A DNA stretch of 11,084 bases from Promethearchaeota archaeon (GTDB lineage Archaea; Asgardarchaeota; Lokiarchaeia; Sigyniarchaeales; SOKP01), in contig JAEOTZ010000048.1 in assembly GCA_016839585.1 (NCBI GenBank), positions 1 through 11,084 of the forward strand. Direction: 5' to 3'. The notes under the pieces were generated by a model. The model had not been told where the DNA came from and ran no database searches. It worked only from the letters and a program-made list of their open reading frames with translations. A program made the position numbers and the translations under genes. Shown here piece by piece: positions 1 through 8,571 of the stretch. The first letter of the stretch is position 1; each line of letters opens with the position of its first letter.

Positions 1-763
1 AGCCAGAAATATCAGGTAAAATTATATCTAATAGGATTAACCTTGGAGTGCTTGTCCTCAATTCCTCTATTCCCTTCGTTCCACTTACTACCCCTTTACA
101 GGTATAGCTTTTACTTTCAAAATAGCTGGTTAACAGCCTGATTGTGGCTAAATCATCTTCAATTAATAGGATATCATATTGAGTTTGAACTTCCTCTACC
201 TTAATTTTATCGAGAATGTTAATGATTTTATTTTCAAGAAGCATGCTTTGGTCAAATATATTTTTAATAGTTGATAAGACATCCTCTTCTAATTCGTCTT
301 TATAATTTTCAAGAAGTAGTTGACTAAATCCCTTAATACTGGTCAAAGGTTCCTTTAATGCATGTGAAATATTAGCAATTGTTTTTTCATCCATTTTATG
401 TATACCTGAGCTTATTAAGTTCGTTTTTTGCTCAATAAAATGATCAACACTATCTCTAATTAGCTTCGAAATAGTAGTATAATTATGATCTCTTATAAAT
501 TCTTGCCATTTCTCTTTTGTATCCTCAGCTACATATAAAGAAATTCTCTCCTTATCCCTATCGTAGATTTTTTCGCCTTTCAACCATTTTTTAAACCCTT
601 CAGTTATCTTTTCTTGCCAAATTGCGTATTTACCTGTCTCATCTTCATATTTTTTCATCAATTTATTAGCTTTTTCACTTTTCAAATCAAGTTTGGCAAT
701 TTCTTCATCGGACATTATCTGTTTGTTGTTATTTCCTTCCTCATTCTTTGAAATATGGCTCAT
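1..763 (-). CDS. Partial CDS (C-terminus runs off the window): signal-transduction protein with N-terminal 'ETGKYAIW' module + RHH-like domain + HisKA(DHp)-like bundle + receiver (REC) domain; paralogue of 988..1827
   Basis: Missing from the ORF track because it has no stop in the window. Manual translation from ATG at 763: MSHISKNEEGNNNKQIMSDEEIAKLDLKSEKANKLMKKYEDETGKYAIWQEKITEGFKKWLKGEKIYDRDKERISLYVAEDTKEKWQEFIRDHNYTTISKLIRDSVDHFIEQK...NISHALKEPLTSIKGFSQLLLENYK...YDILLIEDDLATIRLLTSYFESKSYTCKGVVSGTKGIEELRTSTPRLILLDIILPDISG. Open for 254 codons. H-box His at 362-364; REC acidic pocket EDD and phosphoacceptor LLD are visible. Confidence 0.9.
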   Translation of the reverse strand, partial: MSHISKNEEGNNNKQIMSDEEIAKLDLKSEKANKLMKKYEDETGKYAIWQEKITEGFKKWLKGEKIYDRDKERISLYVAEDTKEKWQEFIRDHNYTTISKLIRDSVDHFIEQKTNLISSGIHKMDEKTIANISHALKEPLTSIKGFSQLLLENYKDELEEDVLSTIKNIFDQSMLLENKIINILDKIKVEEVQTQYDILLIEDDLATIRLLTSYFESKSYTCKGVVSGTKGIEELRTSTPRLILLDIILPDISG

Positions 764-987
764 CTCTTAGTCGTATAATTTAATCCTTTCAGAATTACAG
801 GATTTAATTCATCAGTCTATGACTTATGTGGTAAATTATTCCAAATTTTTTTTATAAAAATTATATTTTACAGTATTTTCTTTATCATTTTTATTAATTT
901 TTTATCTCTTATTAAATCTTTTTGACTATAATGTTAATTTGACGTGATCAAACAATTTTAAAAAAGAAGGAATTCAATTTAGAAATT

Positions 988-1827
988 TCAATTTTTCACT
1001 TTCTTATCGTTTAAAAGAGTAAATATTGGTTCAAAATCTGAGAAATTAAACGGTTTTAAAATGTATCCATTAGCCTTTCCTAAATTTTTTTCTACTTCAG
1101 ATGCAGCTATCGCGGTTAGGAAATAAACAGGAATATCCTTATATTCATTATCAGATTTAATTGTTTCACAGATTTTATATCCATCCAAATCGGGTAAAAT
1201 TATGTCTAATAATATTAGTTTTGGAATTGCATTACCCAATTCTTCTAATCCTTTAGAACCACTCACAATCCCCTTGCATCTAAAACCTCTGCTTTCAAAG
1301 ATCTGCTTTATTAATCGAATTGTAGCAAGATCATCTTCAATTAATAAAACATCGTATTCTGTTTCTACTTTAATATTATCTAGAAAGCTAATAATCTTAT
1401 TTTCAAGAAGTATACTCTGGTCAAAAATATTTTTTACAGTATCTAATATATGATCGTTCAATTTATCCTTATAATTCTCAAGAAGCAATTGTGAATATCC
1501 TTTTATTGATGTTAGCGGCTCTTTTAAGGCGTGTGAAATGTTAAATACTTTAAGAGAACCAATTTTAAATAAATCACTTTCATACTGATCCTTTTTGGAT
1601 TCTATAAAGAATTCTACAGCTTTCCTTATTAATTTAGAAATTGTTGGAGTCTCATTATTTTTTATATACTTTAACCATTTTTCCTTTGTATCCTCTGATA
1701 CATATAACGATATTCGCTCCTTATCCCGTAGATAGATTTTATCTCCTTTTAACCACTTCTTGAATCCTTCTGTTACAAGTCCCCGCCAAACTGCATATTT
1801 TCCTGTGCCTTTTTCATATTGGCTCAT
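988..1827 (-). CDS. Response-regulator-like protein: 'GKYAVW' module + RHH-like domain + HisKA(DHp)-like bundle + C-terminal REC domain, no HATPase domain. True start is probably upstream, at ATT 1950
   Basis: H-box-like ISHALKEPLTSIKGYSQLL (His at 1531-1533). Complete REC signature: LLIEDD, LILLDIILPDLDG, IPVYFLTA, YILKPF. RHH-like pattern RISLYVSEDTKEKW...TISKLIRKAVEFFIE (1600-1716). Collinear with the 1..763 paralogue. Confidence 0.9.
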   Translation of the reverse strand: MSQYEKGTGKYAVWRGLVTEGFKKWLKGDKIYLRDKERISLYVSEDTKEKWLKYIKNNETPTISKLIRKAVEFFIESKKDQYESDLFKIGSLKVFNISHALKEPLTSIKGYSQLLLENYKDKLNDHILDTVKNIFDQSILLENKIISFLDNIKVETEYDVLLIEDDLATIRLIKQIFESRGFRCKGIVSGSKGLEELGNAIPKLILLDIILPDLDGYKICETIKSDNEYKDIPVYFLTAIAASEVEKNLGKANGYILKPFNFSDFEPIFTLLNDKKVKN

Positions 1828-1956
1828 TAATTCTTTGATTTTATCACTATTTAAATCTATGATTTCCTCATTTATCTTAATATTTTCATCTATATTACTA
1901 TTATTTGGCTTTTCCGTTGCTTTCCGTGTATCTTTCTCGTTATTATTAATTAAAAA

Positions 1957-1964
1957 CTCACCTT
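1957..1964 (-). promoter_or_regulatory. Shine-Dalgarno-like AAGGTGAG, 6 nt upstream of an in-frame ATT (1950-1948) of the REC gene
   Basis: The minus strand reads AAGGTGAG-TTTTTA-ATT AAT AAT AAC GAG. GGTGA is the typical archaeal SD core, and the frame is open from here to the stop at 988. Confidence 0.6.
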
Positions 1965-2013
1965 AAAAGAAGAGGTAGTTAGTTTTATTACCACAAGTGA
2001 TTTTTTTTTAAAC

Positions 2014-2030
2014 ACTTTTATAATAAAAGT
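2014..2030. promoter_or_regulatory. Perfect 8-bp inverted repeat ACTTTTAT-A-ATAAAAGT containing a TATA-like TTATAAAA (minus strand) upstream of the REC gene
   Basis: Read directly from the sequence, about 65 bp upstream of the proposed ATT start. The AT-rich context lowers its significance. Confidence 0.35.
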
Positions 2031-2164
2031 TGCCTTTTTTAAGTTTTTACACAAACAAAATAGTTAGAAACAATATTATAAAACAAGGTTTAGTTTATAT
2101 TAAAAAAAGCTATGAAATAAAGTTTAAAAAAACATGAAGTTAGAAACTAATTGCTATAACGGAC

Positions 2165-2533
2165 TTAATCGCCTTCTAATTTACTTCCACAATGAGAACA
2201 AAATTCAGAATCTAACGCAAATAATTTTTTCCCACATATTGGACAAAAGCTTGACACTGCTGAATCTTCTTGAGGTTGAATTTTTACCTCCTTTTGAGAC
2301 AATTCTTTCCTTTTTTTACGATAATACATAGAATCTTCGATTACTTCAACAAAAAAGGCAATTATACCACCTACTATTAAAAAAATAATTCCACCAACAA
2401 ATAAATAAACATTTTTCAATAGAAAAAAATTCCAGATAAGAACCAGTATAAAGAATATTATAAGTATACCAATAATTCCAGTAATTATATGCTTTGCTTT
2501 TACCTTTTCAGAATTTTTCATTTTTAAAACCAA
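2165..2533 (-). CDS. Small membrane protein (2 TM helices) with C-terminal zinc ribbon
   Basis: Two hydrophobic stretches (IITGIIGILIIFFILVLIWNFFLL; VYLFVGGIIFLIVGGIIAFFV), a basic linker, then CPICG...FCSHCGSKL. Start is TTG 2533 or ATG 2521. Confidence 0.8.
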   Translation of the reverse strand: MVLKMKNSEKVKAKHIITGIIGILIIFFILVLIWNFFLLKNVYLFVGGIIFLIVGGIIAFFVEVIEDSMYYRKKRKELSQKEVKIQPQEDSAVSSFCPICGKKLFALDSEFCSHCGSKLEGD

Positions 2534-2684
2534 TTATGATTTCTTCTCTAAAAATACAATAATATAAATATATATTTAAATGTAATAAATAAATTATAAA
2601 GATTCAATTACAGCTTAATTTACTTTTATTAAAAGAGAAAAACTAATAATATTAATTTTAATAGATAAGTTAGGGTTTAATAAT

Positions 2685-3332
2685 TTGAAATTTGAAGTTT
2701 TAAAGGAAAGTGATATTAATCGACTAGCACGTGATTCACATTGGGTAGGGCTAGGAACTAAGAAGGATCCTTATGTTATTGACTCAAAAGAGTTTTTGCC
2801 AGTTCGGTTTCGTATAAAAAATAGCAAATTACATATTCTTATAAGAAATTGTAAATTTGAGTTTATTTCTTTGTGGAGATCGCAAAACATAACGATACAG
2901 GATTGCTCATGTGATATTTACTTTCATTATTGCCATGAAATTCACATTGAAAATTGTAATATTCCTACGTTTAGTTTCGATTATTGCTATAATAATGTCC
3001 TTAAAAATTGTACAATAGATTATATTGATAACCAGTTTAGTAGAGGAAATCTTTTTGAAGGTATTCAAACTTCTGAGGATTACAAGAGGATTATAATTGA
3101 GGGCGGAACATTAGAAGGGGCCTATAAAATATTTTTTAGAATAATTCCAGTGATATTATTAATAGCCATAACTTACCTTATTACCCAAGATTTTATTAGA
3201 GAAAACCTTCTCTTGTTAATTTTATCATTTGTAGGGGTGCTAATGTTATTTATCACTTACTTATTTATTATTATTCACTATTACAAAAATAAAAGGCGCA
3301 TATCTAAATATCCTTTAAATTCAATTAAGTAA
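2685..3332 (+). CDS. Putative right-handed beta-helix (pectin-lyase-fold-like) repeat protein with two C-terminal TM helices
   Basis: GxGTxxDPYxI motif (GLGTKKDPYVI) followed by I-x-I-x-N/D-C-type repeats (ILIRNC, ITIQDC, IHIENC, NVLKNC) and two hydrophobic C-terminal segments. TTG start. Confidence 0.7.
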   Translation: MKFEVLKESDINRLARDSHWVGLGTKKDPYVIDSKEFLPVRFRIKNSKLHILIRNCKFEFISLWRSQNITIQDCSCDIYFHYCHEIHIENCNIPTFSFDYCYNNVLKNCTIDYIDNQFSRGNLFEGIQTSEDYKRIIIEGGTLEGAYKIFFRIIPVILLIAITYLITQDFIRENLLLLILSFVGVLMLFITYLFIIIHYYKNKRRISKYPLNSIK

Positions 3333-3565
3333 TCTACTATATTTGTTATCAAAAAATTATAATTTGCACATATCACATTTATTTTTATAAAAAATTGCTT
3401 AACGATCTATGATTTTATGTCGGGAATTGAAATATAGTTCTCGAAATTTTCATGAAAACTATGATGTAGGTAATATTCTATTTTTAAAATATCTGTAACT
3501 AAAATAAAATATAAATTTACACTTAAAAAAAAATTTTAAAGCATTATTGAAAAAAAAATTTGTTC

Positions 3566-3596
3566 TGTTGTAAAGCACAAAAAATTTTTTACAACA
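3566..3596. promoter_or_regulatory. Perfect 9-bp inverted repeat TGTTGTAAA-N13-TTTACAACA just upstream of the putative tfb TATA box; candidate operator
   Basis: Arms at 3566-3574 and 3588-3596, read directly from the sequence. The repeat ends 6 bp before TTTAAATA. Confidence 0.5.
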
Positions 3597-3602
3597 ATAA
3601 CA

Positions 3603-3610
3603 TTTAAATA
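3603..3610 (+). promoter_or_regulatory. Putative archaeal TATA box (TTTAAATA) for tfb
   Basis: Matches the TTTAWATA consensus and is preceded by an A-rich BRE-like stretch. It would imply a leader of about 145 nt. An SD-like AAGGT lies just upstream of the tfb ATG. Confidence 0.4.
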
Positions 3611-3635
3611 CTAGAAAGTTAAATTATATTATATA

Positions 3636-3670
3636 TTTGGACACAAAAAAATTTATGATTGTGTGCCAAA
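3636..3670 (+). repeat. Imperfect inverted repeat/hairpin TTTGGACACAA-N12-TTGTGT(G)CCAAA in the putative tfb 5' leader
   Basis: 11-bp stem with a single bulged G at 3665. Confidence 0.45.
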
Positions 3671-3778
3671 AATTTCAGTCAGTCTCTTGTGTGTGTAGGA
3701 AATATTAATCTCTTAATAAAAAATAACAACAAATATTTAATGTATTTGATCTAATAATTAGGGTTAAGGTAAGAGTTT

Positions 3779-4669
3779 ATGGTTGTAGAAATAAAACCTC
3801 AGGCGTCCTTTTGTCCAGAGTGTGGGGGTGGCACGATCTCAGTCCATCAGAGAGGGGAGATAGTATGTCGGCAATGCGGCTTGGTTATAGCAGAAAAAGA
3901 AGTAGATATTTCCCATAGCGGAATAAGGGCGTATTCTAAGCAAGAAAAAGACAAAAAAGAAAGAACTGGATGTCCAATTTCGATTTTGATGCCAGATATA
4001 GGCTTAAGTACGATTATCGATCGATCAAAAATTAAGAATCCAGATTTAAGGCGAGCAGCGAAGTGGAATACGCACTTATCATGGGAAAAGCGGAATATGC
4101 TTATTGCGATAACTGAGTTAAAAAGAATTGGTGGGAATTTAAATTTTCCAGAGCGTGTAAAAAAAGCAGCTGTTCGATTATATAAGGAAGTGTTTAAGAA
4201 GAATTTATTACGCGGAAGGTCTATTAATGGTATGATCGCGGCATGTGCATATTTTGTATGTAAGCAAGAAAGGGTTCCGATAACTCTTCAAGAAATTTTA
4301 GATGAGGCATCTATTAATGATAATATTGTAAAGAAATGCTATAAAATTTTAGTAAGAGAATTGAACTTAAAATCTCCTCATGTTGATCCAGTTTCGCTTA
4401 TTCCAAGGTTTTGTGCCGACTTAGGGTTAGACATCAATATAGAAAAGGAAGCAATTAAAATATTGAAGAACTTTATTGAGAGGACATCGATTTGCGGTAA
4501 AGATCCGAAAGGTTTATGCGCTGGAGCGATATATTTGGTTGCCAAACTTAAAAATCATAAGGTTAGTCAGAAGGATATTTCAAAAATTATCGGTGTTACA
4601 GAAGTAACATTACGTTCAAGGTATAAAGAGCTTTTAAAAAATATTAGTTTTACTTTTCAGGCATCCTAA
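3779..4669 (+). CDS. tfb: Transcription initiation factor IIB (TFB), probable paralogue with divergent B-reader
   Basis: N-terminal Zn ribbon CPECG...GEIVCRQCGLVI, ERTG motif, two cyclin repeats (LLRGRSI..., GKDPKGLCAGAIY) and C-terminal HTH VTEVTLRSRYKEL. Confidence 0.97.
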   Translation: MVVEIKPQASFCPECGGGTISVHQRGEIVCRQCGLVIAEKEVDISHSGIRAYSKQEKDKKERTGCPISILMPDIGLSTIIDRSKIKNPDLRRAAKWNTHLSWEKRNMLIAITELKRIGGNLNFPERVKKAAVRLYKEVFKKNLLRGRSINGMIAACAYFVCKQERVPITLQEILDEASINDNIVKKCYKILVRELNLKSPHVDPVSLIPRFCADLGLDINIEKEAIKILKNFIERTSICGKDPKGLCAGAIYLVAKLKNHKVSQKDISKIIGVTEVTLRSRYKELLKNISFTFQAS

Positions 4670-4682
4670 TTTATTTTTTCTT
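4670..4682 (+). terminator. T-rich tract immediately after the tfb stop; possible archaeal intrinsic terminator
   Basis: TTTATTTTTTCTT follows the TAA, in a 36-bp gap between convergent genes. Confidence 0.3.
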
Positions 4683-4705
4683 AAGTTAGATTTCTTCAGA
4701 ATGAT

Positions 4706-6037
4706 CTAAAAACCTTCTTCAGATGGGATGCTATACTTTCTACATATTTCTAAATATTGTTCTTTTGGGAGAGAATTTGGATACATATTGATTAAACTTA
4801 AATTCGGAGGGAATAAATTAAAATCTTTAATTTCAGAAATGGGATTATTATTTAGTTTCAACCATTCTAGATTAGATAATTTATTAAGACCTTTAAGTTC
4901 AGTTATGAGATTGTCATTCAGCTCTAAATGCATTAAATTTATGAGCTTTTCGAGCCCTTTTATTTCAATAATTTGATTTCCATTTAAATAAAGTTCTTTT
5001 AAATTTATTAAATTCTCAAATCCTTTTATCTCTGAAATGAGGTTGTTGTTTAAATCAAGTCTTCTTAAATTAGTTAGTTTTTCAAGTCCTTTTATTTCAG
5101 TTATCTGATTCCCATGTAAATAAAGTTCTTCCAATTTTGATAAATTTTCAAGGCTATTAATTTCTCTTATTTTATTCTTACTCAAATGTAAAATGCGCAC
5201 AGTTTTAAGTTTATTAAATCCTTCTATTTCATTGATATCTCCTATATCCTTGTTAATAATTGCTAAAACTGTATTATAAACTTTAAATGTTTGACCTTTG
5301 TACAAAACTCTCTCGATTATGAGAGGAGGATATATTTTAGTGAGATCAGGATATTTTTCTTTTATCCAAATTTTAAAATCATCAGTTATAATCCGATTTT
5401 GAATTGCAGGTTTGCGAGTTTCAGTCTCAAAACGTTTCATTTCTGGAGGTTTTTCAGGATAATACCAAATCTCTTTTTTGGGGCGAATTTCATCATATTC
5501 TAGATTATGTAAAATAATGAATCCAACACTATCTTTAATTAATTGAGTAAATGTAAAATAATCATATTCTCGCATAAATTTTTGCCATTTAGATTTCATT
5601 TCTTTGGAGATTATTGTATGAACATTTGGCTTGTCTCTATCGTAAATTTCCTCACCTAATAACCACTTTTTAAAACCTTCGGTTATTTTATCTTGCCAAA
5701 TAGCATATTTTCCTGTTTCATTTTCGAACATTTTAATTAATGACTTAACCTTTTCACTATTCAAATCAATATTGGCAATTTCTTTTTCAGTCATGATGTG
5801 AAATTTTTCTCTTTTGCTATTTAGAATTGAAGCTGATTTCTCTTTGATAAAATAATAAACAGAATTACTAATTAATTTAGAAATAGATGGGTAATTATGA
5901 GTTTTAATAAAATTTCGCCATTTTATATGTGTTTCATTTGTTATTTGAGCCGAAATCATCATATTATTAGAATCATAAAGGATATTATCACTTATCCAAA
6001 TTCTTGATCTATTAGATTTTTTTGGTTTTTCTTTCAT
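4706..6037 (-). CDS. Leucine-rich repeat (SDS22-like) protein with N-terminal tandem RHH-like domains and 'ETGKYAIW' modules
   Basis: C-terminal 22-aa LRRs (IKGLEKLTNLRRLDLNNNLISE etc.). The N-terminal half is homologous to the N-termini of the two REC proteins (ETGKYAIWQDKITEGFKKWLLGEEIYDRDK; KWRNFIKTHNYPSISKLISNSVYYFI). Confidence 0.9.
   Translation of the reverse strand: MKEKPKKSNRSRIWISDNILYDSNNMMISAQITNETHIKWRNFIKTHNYPSISKLISNSVYYFIKEKSASILNSKREKFHIMTEKEIANIDLNSEKVKSLIKMFENETGKYAIWQDKITEGFKKWLLGEEIYDRDKPNVHTIISKEMKSKWQKFMREYDYFTFTQLIKDSVGFIILHNLEYDEIRPKKEIWYYPEKPPEMKRFETETRKPAIQNRIITDDFKIWIKEKYPDLTKIYPPLIIERVLYKGQTFKVYNTVLAIINKDIGDINEIEGFNKLKTVRILHLSKNKIREINSLENLSKLEELYLHGNQITEIKGLEKLTNLRRLDLNNNLISEIKGFENLINLKELYLNGNQIIEIKGLEKLINLMHLELNDNLITELKGLNKLSNLEWLKLNNNPISEIKDFNLFPPNLSLINMYPNSLPKEQYLEICRKYSIPSEEGF
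4832..5227 (-). repeat. Six 66-bp coding repeats (22-aa LRR units)
   Basis: 396 bp = 6 x 66, with consensus IxGLxxLxxLxxLxLxxNxIxE. Confidence 0.85.
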
Positions 6038-6143: not shown

Positions 6144-7238
6144 TTATTTATTCTTAGTTTGTTCTAAAAACCACTCATTTGAATGTTGATAAAATATTTT
6201 ATAAGCTTCACAAAAATAGGTTTTTTCAGGGTGAGGATTATCTGGAAAGATTCTATCCTTAATGCAACCTCCATAGCATAATTCCTGCCAGTTACAACTA
6301 AGGCATTCTTTGCCTAGTTTTACTTTAAGTTTTTTGAATGAGTTATCTCTCTTATTTTTTAGATTGCTTAAGTTCTCTTCGAGTATGTTTCCGAGTTTAT
6401 ATGTTTGTTGTACGAAGAAATCACAGGGATAAACATCTCCATTCCATTCAATTAATAGGTATTCCGCACATTCTTTTTCAATGGTACAGCACCCTTTAGG
6501 ATAGCCGTAATAATATGCGAGTATACCATTAAACGTTCTTATTGATGCTTGATTAAGATTTTTTTTCCATTCGTCAAAGAGTTGACATAGAAATTTCCCA
6601 TATTGAGTTGGATTTATTGAAAATGACGCCTTTTTTCCATCAACGTCTACTTCAAGAGTGGGAATAAATTGTAAGTAAGTAAAATCATTATCGAGAAAAA
6701 AATTATAAATTTCTTTTACCCGATTTACATTAGATTTATTAATTACACAGAGAATATTGAATTCGACTTTATTTCGTTTAAGACATTCAGCAGCGTTCAT
6801 TACTTTTTGCCAGACAGATTTACCACCAATACTCTTTCTATACCGATCATGAATATCTTTTGGACCATCAAGACTCAGCCCTATTAAAAAGCGAAAATTA
6901 TGGAAAAAATTTCCCCATTCATCATTAATAAGAATTCCATTAGTTTGAAATGCATTTCCAATAATCTGACCTGTTTTCCCATATTTTTGTTGGAGTGATA
7001 CTACTTTTTTAAAAAACTCAAGTCCTGCTAATGTTGGTTCACCACCTTGCCATCCAAATATTGATTCGTTAAAATTAAATTGTAAAAATTCAGCTATCAT
7101 ATGTTCTAATACTTCTTTGCTCATTCGAGGATGATTAATTTTAGGGTATTCATCTGCTACCCTTAAATAGAAGCAATAATTACATCTTAAATTACAATCA
7201 AAAGATACAGGTTTTATGAGTAATTGAAATGGCTTCAC
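6144..7238 (-). CDS. Anaerobic sulfatase-maturating enzyme family radical SAM/SPASM protein (AslB/ChuR/anSME-like)
   Basis: LLIKPVSFDCNLRCNYCFY (CxxxCxxC), WQGGEPTLAGLEFF, QTNG, GLSLDGP, and the SPASM cysteine set (CTIEKEC...GDVYPCDFF...CLSC...CYGGC...FC). GTG start. Confidence 0.9.
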   Translation of the reverse strand: MKPFQLLIKPVSFDCNLRCNYCFYLRVADEYPKINHPRMSKEVLEHMIAEFLQFNFNESIFGWQGGEPTLAGLEFFKKVVSLQQKYGKTGQIIGNAFQTNGILINDEWGNFFHNFRFLIGLSLDGPKDIHDRYRKSIGGKSVWQKVMNAAECLKRNKVEFNILCVINKSNVNRVKEIYNFFLDNDFTYLQFIPTLEVDVDGKKASFSINPTQYGKFLCQLFDEWKKNLNQASIRTFNGILAYYYGYPKGCCTIEKECAEYLLIEWNGDVYPCDFFVQQTYKLGNILEENLSNLKNKRDNSFKKLKVKLGKECLSCNWQELCYGGCIKDRIFPDNPHPEKTYFCEAYKIFYQHSNEWFLEQTKNK

Positions 7239-7271: not shown

Positions 7272-7949
7272 TTAACTATTATTACATAAAAAAAGTCTGA
7301 TTCCACATTCATGACAAAATATTGAATCGGATTCTAATTCCATCCCACATCTTTCACAAGAATTATGGTGATGCTCACAAACAATGCTATTTTTTTCATT
7401 AATAGACTTCATTTTAATTAATTTTTTAAATGGAAAGGAACATATAGTTCCAATACTAGTAGTTATCCCTAAAATTCCGTATAAAATCCACATTAAATCA
7501 ATAGAAAACGGATCGCACTTAATAGTGTAACTTATAGTTCCTGCAGTAGTAGATCTAATAAGATGCAATCCAGAAGAATGAACGTGATATTTTCCTAAGT
7601 CATTAAGCTTTCCTCTTGAAACATAAAAAGTTTCAAGAAATTCTTCCATAAGCTGATTATAATCTAGTCCCCACTCTGATGACATCTCTGAAGCTATTCG
7701 TTGATAATATTCGAGTGTACTTTTTTTAATAATTAACAAACTAACGTCACTTGTAGATCTAAAGCTCCATTCAATCACATTTAATACTTTCCTTTCTAAT
7801 TCGAAATCTGGTTCATTTTCTCCAGAGTCTTCATGAAAAGCAAAATTCATTACAGTCTCTTGATTAGATAATACTGCTATACATCCAATTATTATTGTTG
7901 TTAATATTGGGAATACAAAAGTCTTTTTCTTAATTTTTTCTCCTAACAC
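7272..7949 (-). CDS. Membrane protein: N-terminal signal/TM, extracytoplasmic domain, TM, C-terminal zinc ribbon
   Basis: KKKTFVFPILTTIIIGCIAVL N-terminus, second hydrophobic segment LMWILYGILGITTSIGTICSF, and C-terminal CERCG...FCHECGIRL. Confidence 0.75.
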   Translation of the reverse strand: MLGEKIKKKTFVFPILTTIIIGCIAVLSNQETVMNFAFHEDSGENEPDFELERKVLNVIEWSFRSTSDVSLLIIKKSTLEYYQRIASEMSSEWGLDYNQLMEEFLETFYVSRGKLNDLGKYHVHSSGLHLIRSTTAGTISYTIKCDPFSIDLMWILYGILGITTSIGTICSFPFKKLIKMKSINEKNSIVCEHHHNSCERCGMELESDSIFCHECGIRLFLCNNS

Positions 7950-7971: not shown

Positions 7972-8571
7972 TTATTTTAGCATACTCCCACAATCGTGGC
8001 AAAATCTTGAAAACAAATCTACTTCAGTTTCACAGGAATGACAAACTAAAAAATTTTGTTTTACTTGTTGAGGTATTTGAATTGAATTATTTTCCAAATT
8101 TCGGGTATTGTTTTTATTATGTACATAAATTAAAGCTTCTGATTTTCTTGAAATTCTCTTAATATTACAGTTAGAAATTAATATCTGATCCCCAGAGAAT
8201 GCAAATAATTTCTTTATTTTTGAATTAGTGAATTTAATCTTATGTACTTGTTCTAACCTCAATTGCTTTAGTATATCAACATTATGGACCGAAATCATCG
8301 AGCATTTTCCTAAACCCAAGCATTAAATTCTAGCTTTCGAGATTCTCACATTTTTACACTGACGTAAATAAACAGCTTTTAAGGAGAATCCACTAAATTT
8401 AATATACTTACTTGAATCAGAAATTCTAACTTCATAAGATTCTGTAGAAAACTGGTCTTTAGTACTTAACAAATAGGGATCATCAATTGTTCCAGCTCCA
8501 GTTATTTCTATTTTAAATTCAAAATAACGGCTTGAATTCCATAAAGATCCACTAGAGATTTCGATATTCAA
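7972..8571 (-). pseudogene. Beta-helix-like + zinc-ribbon gene interrupted by one in-frame TAA (8325-8323); joins ORFs 8323..8571 and 7972..8319
   Basis: Both ORFs share one frame: ...AAA GCT AGA ATT TAA TGC TTG GGT TTA GGA AAA TGC..., and the repeat register continues across the stop. The N-part has GAGTIDDPYLL like the 2685..3332 paralogue; the C-part ends CHSC...FCHDCGSMLK. Confidence 0.75.

Follow-up and report, generated by a model that had tools for sequence, protein, structure and literature searches.

The transcription machinery of Lokiarchaeia, a group that ranks with the nearest known prokaryotic relatives of eukaryotes, often serves as a stand-in for that of the eukaryotic ancestor. 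To our knowledge, the only DNA-binding-type response regulators of Asgard archaea are proteins with an RHH-HisKA-REC architecture. This architecture, with an RHH of the Arc/CopG type, is listed for Lokiarchaeum by Galperin, Makarova, Wolf and Koonin (2018, PMC5847659). Two regulators of the same architecture are encoded in the window analysed here (the whole stretch of 11,084 nucleotides, contig JAEOTZ010000048.1 of a Promethearchaeota archaeon), but both carry an additional N-terminal module, whereas the part of that survey in which the Lokiarchaeum proteins are listed gives RHH-HisKA-REC alone, with no mention of such a piece. No description of the module was found in the literature.

The module had been noticed in the initial annotation as a repeated 'ETGKYAIW…FKKW' stretch, and the coordinates, peptides and counts given there all proved right, the strand being the minus one: translation of the minus strand at 551-640, 1720-1809 and 5630-5719 yields exactly the three peptides quoted, the plus-strand frames are rich in stop codons, and all copies of the window lie on the minus strand (Table 1). 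A recount gives 27 of 30 identical residues between copies 1 and 3, with 14 synonymous and three non-synonymous codon differences, 22 of 30 between copies 1 and 2, and 20 of 30 between copies 2 and 3, the copy in the LRR protein being, as had been claimed, nearer to that of regulator 1 than the copies of the two regulators are to each other. All four copies fit the module profile, the full ones with in-genome domain E-values of 1e-13 to 1e-17, far above chance, and the suspected degenerate copy is genuine too (E 0.027 with the seed profile and 1e-10 after iteration). Only the extent of the proposed 30-aa unit had to be corrected: its core stands, while the last ~9 residues (GEKIYDRDK) are a connector of the regulator subfamily, outside the general module, and the stretch 551-640 corresponds to the core of copy 1 plus the connector to the RHH. 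The helix of the type 'DLxS(E/D)KxxxL', described as preceding the full copies, exists and is the domain's own first helix in the AlphaFold2 model; the DNA of regulator 2 encodes it as well, in frame and 5' of the first ATG. The homologues of this protein are 322-325 aa long, and its true start probably lies upstream of the annotated ATG.

Table 1. Features of the window (minus strand) and module-bearing proteins of the same genome.
Feature	Position	Strand	Remarks
Regulator 1: module - RHH-like - HisKA - REC	2..763	-	Window edge cuts gene
RHH-like segment of regulator 1, after module	428..547	-	Weak RHH_1 match, aa 73-112
Module copy 1	575..688	-	Helix, hairpin, helix; aa 26-63 of regulator 1; translation; profile E 3.8e-17
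Regulator 2: module - RHH-like - HisKA - REC	988..1827	-	Pfam Response_reg 2.6e-17, HisKA 8e-7
Module copy 2, regulator 2	1744..1863	-	Core from annotated ATG (1827); first helix (IDLNSDKIKEL) in frame upstream
Chimera: RHH-like - module - RHH-like - degenerate module - LRR	4706..6037	-	Pfam LRR_4 6e-30
Degenerate module copy 4, LRR protein	5345..5440	-	aa ~200-231; directly N-terminal to LRR region; E 0.027 seed, 1.1e-10 iterated
Module copy 3, LRR protein	5654..5767	-	aa 91-128; profile E 4.6e-17
Host in this genome: three RHH-HisKA-REC regulators
Host in this genome: RHH-LRR chimera of the window
Host in this genome: RNA polymerase A'			C-terminus
Host in this genome: giant TFIIB-repeat protein
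Host in this genome: second giant protein			No assigned function
Host in this genome: GIFT-domain protein
Host in this genome: 4-TM protein
Host in this genome: tandem protein			Six tandem copies

Regulator 1 is recognized by Pfam through HisKA (1.5e-8) and Response_reg (1.4e-7), with a weak RHH_1 match (0.35). When it is compared with the LRR protein by the Nei-Gojobori method, the module core shows a dN of 0.076 with dS saturated, and the adjacent RHH segment a dN of 0.51 and a dS of 0.99; these estimates and the codon differences bear out that the unit, small and built on an aromatic core, is under strong purifying selection. The local alignment of copy 3 with regulator 1 spans the first helix through the RHH, and the module-RHH cassette was transferred into the LRR protein as a single piece. 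The chimera is species-specific: among 71 genomes of the window's family its N-terminal 250 aa find a full match in this genome alone, with no orthologue in the other 70, where every match is to regulators. This joint transfer, together with the conserved 9-residue connector that links module and RHH strand in the regulators, might suggest that the module extends the RHH DNA-binding fold (CopG/Arc/MetJ) at its N-terminus and cannot be separated from it, an explanation of negligible likelihood, because most host families are devoid of any RHH, the module folds by itself in models, and the host architectures found refute it. Modules without RHH are carried by RNA polymerase A', GTPases, membrane proteins, eL13 and tandem arrays, and the module is thus not confined to the N-terminal part of this fold.

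Across 473 unique copies, the module shares the signature [YF]xx[EL]TGKxA[IYV][WY]xGxxTxx[FY]xx[WY], in which the Thr is 100% conserved, and has a length of about 38-40 aa. AlphaFold2 predicts the order helix, beta-hairpin, helix (pLDDT 85-93), with a two-stranded hairpin and a second helix that begins at the invariant Thr; in the model of copy 1 (aa 15-76), these elements occupy residues 30-43, 48-53 and 55-61, with a pLDDT of about 88-91. The same unit is modelled in two unrelated contexts, and according to these models the module is an autonomous, independently folding mini-domain, the core of which is probably formed by the four aromatic positions. Fold stability alone could account for most of the invariant positions. 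Net charge averages +3 to +3.7 in the 27-aa core (zero or below in just 6-12% of copies), although the first helix is often acidic and the whole domain is thus less basic than its core. The usual place of the module is the end of a protein, on a flexible low-complexity linker, where it occurs singly, in twos or threes, or in arrays of 4-10 copies; the linkers between modules are predicted to be disordered, and in tandem pairs neighbouring modules are joined by one long helix in the model. The module is cytoplasmic, as indicated by a type-I NosD membrane protein in which two modules lie C-terminal to the TM helix and a K/R stretch.

Profile searches of this and related genomes support the idea, already put forward in the initial annotation, that the module has been shuffled among unrelated proteins. 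In this genome, the iterated profile finds 16 copies in 10 proteins (Table 1), where Rpb1 domains, the TFIIB repeat and GIFT are host domains. Further partners include Ras/Roc, LRR, PD-(D/E)XK, Cap4 nuclease, reverse transcriptase, NosD, a Na/Pi transporter and a beta-propeller, and other hosts are Ras-like GTPases, receptor cytoplasmic tails, 7-TM proteins, nucleases, eL13 and aIF2-gamma. Two viral contigs, searched with a degenerate DNA pattern, also carry the module, in small proteins encoded between PCNA-like and PolB-like genes. Two sister families, both from a single order of Lokiarchaeia, have the module in every genome sampled (68/68 and 7/7), and about 226 further Asgard genomes yielded no copy. 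No host is shared more widely than RNA polymerase subunit A', where the module sits in the C-terminal tail. In the A' of this genome (C61), Rpb1 domains 1-5 are followed by a linker and by the module at aa 952-980, and in the window's family the polymerase-tail module is carried by frames of ~975-996 aa (for example, P0099). The sister family has one to three copies in the A' tail, on acidic, not basic, linkers, and an A' of this family shows a 290-aa tail with three copies, followed by the rpoA'' gene. In five of five sister-family genomes, A'-sized frames were the sole match (family-tuned profile, E<=0.1), A' identity being established by Pfam for G210 and G162 and by length for the remaining frames. 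Since the sister family usually has no other carrier, the A' tail is likely the ancestral host, and in the window's family the module has been copied onto many other proteins, including the RHH-HisKA-REC regulators and the RHH-LRR chimera.

The statement that the module belongs to no named family also holds. Pfam and NCBIfam, run on the three window proteins, 65-aa pieces, the tandem protein and 50 module pieces, left the module uncovered, with no confident match to a characterised Pfam domain, and for the 50 pieces Pfam gave no family at E<=10. PDB sequences gave chance matches only, whether the query was the module profile or the eL13 tail, the ESM Atlas returned nothing usable, VIA-align did not match the module, and a word-index search with the polymerase tail recovered its own cluster only. 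Foldseek found nothing under E 0.02 with the whole model of the tandem protein and nothing under E 5 with a 62-aa model, which is too small to call the fold new. None of these searches provided a relative, in structure or in sequence, whose ligand is known. A C2H2-type beta-beta-alpha zinc finger was discarded because none of the 24 profile columns listed shows a conserved Cys or His, and SHOCT (PF09851) because the module pieces had no Pfam match at E<=10. One further candidate, that the module is a shortened, remote homologue of the hybrid-binding domain at the N-terminus of RNase H1 (Cauli_VI, PF01693) and would bind duplex RNA or RNA/DNA hybrids, is very improbable. It stems from the module of the G162 eL13 fusion, which scores 20.5 bits (E 5.6e-4), just below the gathering cut-off of 21 bits, and from the spacing A-x3-G-x5-[FY]-x2-W, which we take to be common to both families. 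However, none of 50 other modules matches at E<=10, neither this genome nor 201 Asgard genomes contain a match, no PDB sequence match to the solved hybrid-binding domains was obtained, and no such chain was among the fold matches of a query model that is very small. Moreover, the module is half the length of that domain, lacks its second half, and has F and W placed in a helix in the model. The full domain of ~44 aa is a three-stranded sheet with two helices; the models of the module show two short strands and no third one.

Regarding function, a putative fixed binding partner was proposed in the initial annotation, and the reading that we tentatively prefer is that of a tethered unit for binding, which would bring each host to one shared ligand, most likely a polyanion, i.e., the nucleic-acid backbone. 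This ligand would be DNA near the polymerase and RHH operators, or RNA, and the contribution of the module would be avidity or local concentration, not sequence specificity. In the regulators it would sit beside operator DNA, because it lies ~9 residues ahead of the RHH DNA-reading strand, and the conserved TGK turn and G-x-x-T helix cap may, judging from the sequence, form the contact patch. A polyanionic ligand is suggested by the basic core and the Lys/Pro-rich linkers that recur beside the module in unrelated hosts (the A' tail, eL13, aIF2-gamma and the tandem protein), by the many hosts that handle nucleic acids (RNA polymerase, RHH regulators, the TFIIB-like protein, nucleases, reverse transcriptase, eL13 and aIF2-gamma), by the location of the viral module proteins amid PCNA-like and PolB-like genes, and by a multivalency that suits a polymeric ligand. 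It is at odds with the acidic linkers of the sister-family polymerase tails, the often acidic first helix, the moderate conservation (30-59%) of the exposed lysines of the second helix, and hosts with no evident need of nucleic acids (Ras-like GTPase, GIFT, 4-TM/7-TM, Na/Pi transporter and beta-propeller proteins), and the sole hint of a known nucleic-acid-binding family, PF01693, was not reproducible. The invariant Thr and the conserved Gly and Lys at the N-terminus of the second helix have also been considered as the site of a small phosphate ligand (a nucleotide second messenger, polyphosphate or inositol phosphate), held by the G-K-x-T cap and the TGK turn, and several hosts (RNA polymerase, aIF2-gamma, GTPases, the Na/Pi transporter and response regulators) recall the target lists of global nucleotide alarmones; nevertheless, such a sensor seems quite improbable, since so small a domain offers little room for a specific pocket, a sensor would not usually be arrayed in up to ten copies, and Pfam, PDB sequence and fold searches revealed no similarity to known nucleotide-binding motifs.

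The main rival to polyanion binding, which we consider rather unlikely, is a protein-docking tag: the module would bind one conserved module-less protein (for instance, a factor from chromatin, transcription or translation, a ubiquitin-like protein or a filament of the cytoskeleton), and fusion would recruit the host to this hub. The high promiscuity of partners (GTPases, LRR, receptor tails, transporters and REC) and the terminal placement on flexible linkers fit this explanation, virus-encoded small module proteins would suit mimicry of a host docking code, and genomes in which only the polymerase carries the module imply that the ligand need not be another module. Yet no candidate hub was found, the tandem-repeat gene has no conserved neighbours across 33 loci, and a docking tag does not predict a consistently basic core with Lys-rich linkers. 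The tandem-repeat protein itself was rejected as a universal hub, its N-terminal domain (single-protein query) being present in 21 of 68 window-family and none of 7 sister-family genomes. This distribution equally weakens the proposal of a homotypic adaptor. Here, modules would pair with one another, as Death, PB1 or SAM domains do, and the polymerase tail would thereby be wired to regulators, GTPases, receptors, the ribosome and aIF2, the tandem-repeat protein serving as scaffold. The partner spectrum is adaptor-like (LRR, small GTPases, nucleases and receptors), a dedicated multi-copy protein exists, and obligate-dimer regulators would present two modules, but this proposal is improbable, because in five sister-family genomes the polymerase is the only carrier found, which implies an ancestral role without other carriers, and the long helix joining tandem modules disfavours their folding back on each other. 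Also unlikely is a docking code with RNA polymerase at its centre, in which the tail and the module-bearing proteins (regulators, GTPases and receptor tails, as well as eL13 and aIF2-gamma in some lineages) would all meet at a single partner or bind one another. If true, it would represent a CTD-like recruitment platform in close relatives of eukaryotes and a possible physical link between transcription, translation and signalling, copied by viruses.

In any case, the largest polymerase subunit in this order has a flexible tail with one to three folded modules that databases do not name. The identity of their ligand would reveal what the polymerase recruits, or what recruits the polymerase, and would explain the extra N-terminal piece of Asgard DNA-binding-type response regulators; the module, with only 40 aa, lends itself to direct NMR, to peptide synthesis and to binding screens. 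Among described systems, SHOCT (short C-terminal domain) is a bacterial domain of ~30 residues, frequently found at protein ends, in many unrelated hosts and in tandem. This and similar promiscuous mini-domains resemble the module in small size, terminal position, varied hosts and tandem occurrence, although SHOCT is described as helical and, by family description, differs from the hairpin and aromatic core of the module. In bacteria, the alpha-CTD of RNA polymerase contacts both DNA and regulators. It belongs to another subunit, has no sequence similarity to the module, and does not occur, as the module does, on dozens of unrelated proteins; its absence from the fold matches says little, given the very small query model. 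In layout it offers an analogy, possibly extending to its role, since both are small folded units leashed to RNA polymerase by a flexible linker.

The peptides quoted in the initial annotation for three copies of the module, a helix-hairpin-helix mini-domain of about 38-40 residues, are identical letter for letter to minus-strand translations, and the plus-strand frames at these positions contain stops when translated. The recount agreed on 27/30 identical residues and 14 synonymous codon differences between copies 1 and 3, and on 22/30 identical residues between copies 1 and 2. Comparing regulator 1 with the leucine-rich repeat (LRR) protein, the module core gives a dN of 0.076 with saturated dS (Nei-Gojobori), versus a dN of 0.51 for the adjoining ribbon-helix-helix (RHH)-like segment; therefore, the module is conserved at the protein level, as had been claimed, and more strongly than its RHH-like neighbour, and it is under strong purifying selection. 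A local alignment pairs residues 81-175 of the LRR protein with residues 16-110 of regulator 1, a stretch that spans helix, module, connector and RHH. The gene of the LRR protein is a partial duplication of this stretch fused to an LRR domain. This chimera (RHH-module-RHH-module-LRR) is seemingly confined to the window's genome; its first 250 residues, compared with 70 other genomes of the family, found matches only via the module-RHH cassette that the regulators carry.

The called start of regulator 2 is the ATG at 1827 (279 aa), with a frame that stays open for 45 codons further upstream, where the conserved first helix (IDLNSDKIKEL) is encoded. Its homologues (322-325 aa) start with 'MGEVLIN…', and the ancestral ATG has apparently been replaced by a stop, because this position reads TAA-GGT-GAG ('*GEFLIN') in the window. 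The open frame has no ATG, GTG or TTG upstream; the start may be non-canonical, the protein truncated or the assembly in error. Elsewhere in the window, two ORFs have in common an N-terminal 'G-x-G-T-x-x-DPY-x-I/L' motif, which we take to be typical of beta-helix caps.

Features of the window and of the other loci mentioned in the text
Feature	Coordinates	Strand	Content
Regulator 1 ORF	window 2..763	-	HisKA and receiver domains, module copy 1
Regulator 2 ORF	window 988..1827	-	HisKA and receiver domains, module copy 2
Regulator 2, upstream open frame	window 1828-1965	-	first helix
Chimera (LRR protein) ORF	window 4706..6037	-	leucine-rich repeats, module copy 3
Small protein	window 2165-2533	-	one zinc-ribbon type at ends (weak Zn_ribbon/DZR matches)
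Small protein	window 7272-7949	-	same zinc-ribbon type
Small protein	window 7972-8319	-	same zinc-ribbon type
ORF with DPY motif	window 2685-3332	+	
ORF with DPY motif	window 8323-8571	-	
TFB gene, complete	window 3779-4669	+	Zn ribbon and two TFIIB repeats; between regulator pair and chimera
Radical SAM protein	window 6144-7238	-	SPASM domain; no relation to module
Tandem protein, N-terminal domain	L007:352-801 (contig 8)	+	alpha/beta, about 135 aa
1720-aa protein	L017:2439-7598 (contig 76)	-	acidic repeat N-terminus, one module, long C-terminal region
G162 eL13 (PF01294)	L053:1483-2436	-	Lys/Pro/Ala/Glu-rich repeat tail, two modules
G162 aIF2-gamma	L066:1459-3048	+	N-terminal module and Lys-rich linker in frame ahead
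Viral protein, 82 aa	L077:8600-8848	-	ends in module
Viral protein, 94 aa	L078:4751-5035	+	ends in module

A profile built from the copies of the window's genome and searched across that genome retrieved 16 copies in 10 proteins, with no match above noise beyond these. The hosts are three RHH-HisKA-REC regulators, of which two lie in the window and the third on contig 87; the chimera; RNA polymerase subunit A', where a Lys-rich linker of ~70 aa follows Rpb1 domains 1-5 and the module occupies the extreme C-terminus; the 1720-aa protein; an uncharacterised 1318-aa protein; a GIFT/ABC_transp_aux protein and a 4-TM protein (both with a C-terminal module); and a 421-aa tandem protein with six copies arranged as three A/B pairs. 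The 1720-aa protein resembles a giant TFB-like protein, its C-terminal region containing several weak HTH matches besides a TFIIB repeat (PF00382, 2.5e-19). No Pfam family covers the N-terminal domain of the tandem protein, and its fold has no clear match, with Mediator Med18/20 and MP1-p14 roadblock-type chains among the weak Foldseek rows.

Alignment of 473 unique database copies yields the signature [YF]-x-x-[EL]-T-G-K-x-A-[IYV]-[WY]-x-G-x-x-T-x-x-[FY]-x-x-[WY]-[KL], with an invariant Thr and four positions that are aromatic in every copy. In the AlphaFold2 model of the tandem protein (38-sequence alignment) every module folds as helix, hairpin and helix (pLDDT 85-93), joined by disordered linkers, and residues 15-76 of regulator 1 (50-sequence alignment) give a helix at 30-43, a hairpin at 48-53 and a helix at 55-61 (pLDDT about 88-91). 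Because these models include it, the helix previously noted ahead of each copy corresponds to the first helix of the predicted domain. The 'GEKIYDRDK' tail is a connector peculiar to the regulators.

A word-index search found 471 proteins with the module, whose named carriers are all MAGs of Promethearchaeota/Lokiarchaeia, apart from a few that bear Hod- or Hermodarchaeota labels (taxon labels as deposited). Searching 1.84 billion cluster representatives exhaustively gave 449 at E<=0.001. In a sample of 300 genomes of the phylum, it is present in 68/68 genomes of the window's family and in 6/7 of the sister family (the seventh is also positive with a profile tuned to that family), and was found in neither of 2 genomes from other orders of the class nor in any of about 224 other genomes, short-profile searches being liable to overlook divergent copies. 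Candidatus Harpocratesius repetitus belongs to the sister-family genomes (exact protein match). The sister-family A' (1166 aa), followed by rpoA'' as the next gene, carries a 290-aa tail with three modules separated by acidic linkers. In five of these genomes the tuned profile matched only A'-sized frames, with three copies in three genomes and one in two, A' being identified by Pfam in G210 and G162 and by length in the remaining frames. Most sister-family genomes thus have the polymerase as the only carrier found, so the main ligand should be something other than a second module, which lowers the standing of a homotypic adaptor, in which modules bind each other. A sixth genome, G162, has three module proteins besides A': eL13, aIF2-gamma and a protein outside the Pfam families that has the module at its N-terminus. 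The aIF2-gamma ORF has 529 aa versus 462 aa in the NCBI call and an uncertain start codon; the deposited annotation begins 67 codons further downstream, so the fusion requires TTG as start. A' is the core host of the module and likely its ancestral one, with later spread in one family.

In other genomes, the partner domains include REC/HisKA, LRR, Rpb1, PD-(D/E)XK and Cap4 nucleases, a Na/Pi transporter and NUMOD3, and carriers also comprise Ras/Roc/Arf GTPases (two modules at the C-terminus), a Cap4-LRR-reverse transcriptase protein and a BBS7-like beta-propeller. Among proteins of at least 150 aa, the module is N-terminal in 68, internal in 45 and C-terminal in 31. A NosD carrier has a signal/TM helix, an external beta-helix and a second TM helix, and the module is placed in the cytoplasm because the two copies of this protein follow the second TM helix, on a K/R-rich tail. 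The module is thus an autonomous unit in the predicted structure, cytoplasmic, tethered and often multivalent. The module also ends two small proteins of IMG/VR viral contigs, whose flanking genes, read by eye, look like sliding-clamp-like and family B DNA polymerase genes, one apparently with an intein-like insert.

The module may bind one ligand common to its hosts. We rank first, tentatively, a polyanion, with a nucleic-acid backbone as the most likely form, because of the consistently basic core (a mean charge of +3 to +3.7), the Lys/Pro-rich linkers that accompany the module in unrelated hosts, the many hosts that work on nucleic acid and, in the regulators, a position ~9 residues ahead of the DNA-reading strand. 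The main rival, which we consider rather unlikely, is that the module docks to a conserved protein, since nucleic acid has no obvious role in GTPases, transporters and GIFT proteins. As a minority reading, the ligand would be a small phosphate compound bound at the helix cap (G-K-x-T plus TGK). The tandem protein was discarded as a universal hub, its N-terminal domain being found with a single-protein query in 21/68 genomes of the window's family and 0/7 of the sister family; its gene has no conserved neighbour.

The absence of a named family, already remarked in the initial annotation, holds against the Pfam and NCBIfam models, none of which match. A PDB sequence search gave no relative, and fold searches with the module models (including Foldseek), a weak test for models so small, gave no match. 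A relationship with the RNase H1 hybrid-binding domain is very unlikely: it came from a single sub-threshold match of one copy that no other search supported. The literature search returned no account of either the module or the polymerase tail. The Arc-type RHH-HisKA-REC architecture was reported in Lokiarchaeum (Galperin et al. 2018, PMC5847659); the part of that paper considered here does not mention the N-terminal module, whereas the window's regulators contain it. The module represents a domain family not described before. Its kind is a familiar one, that of small, mobile, tethered binding modules, and its setting, the polymerase tail of Lokiarchaeia, is unusual.
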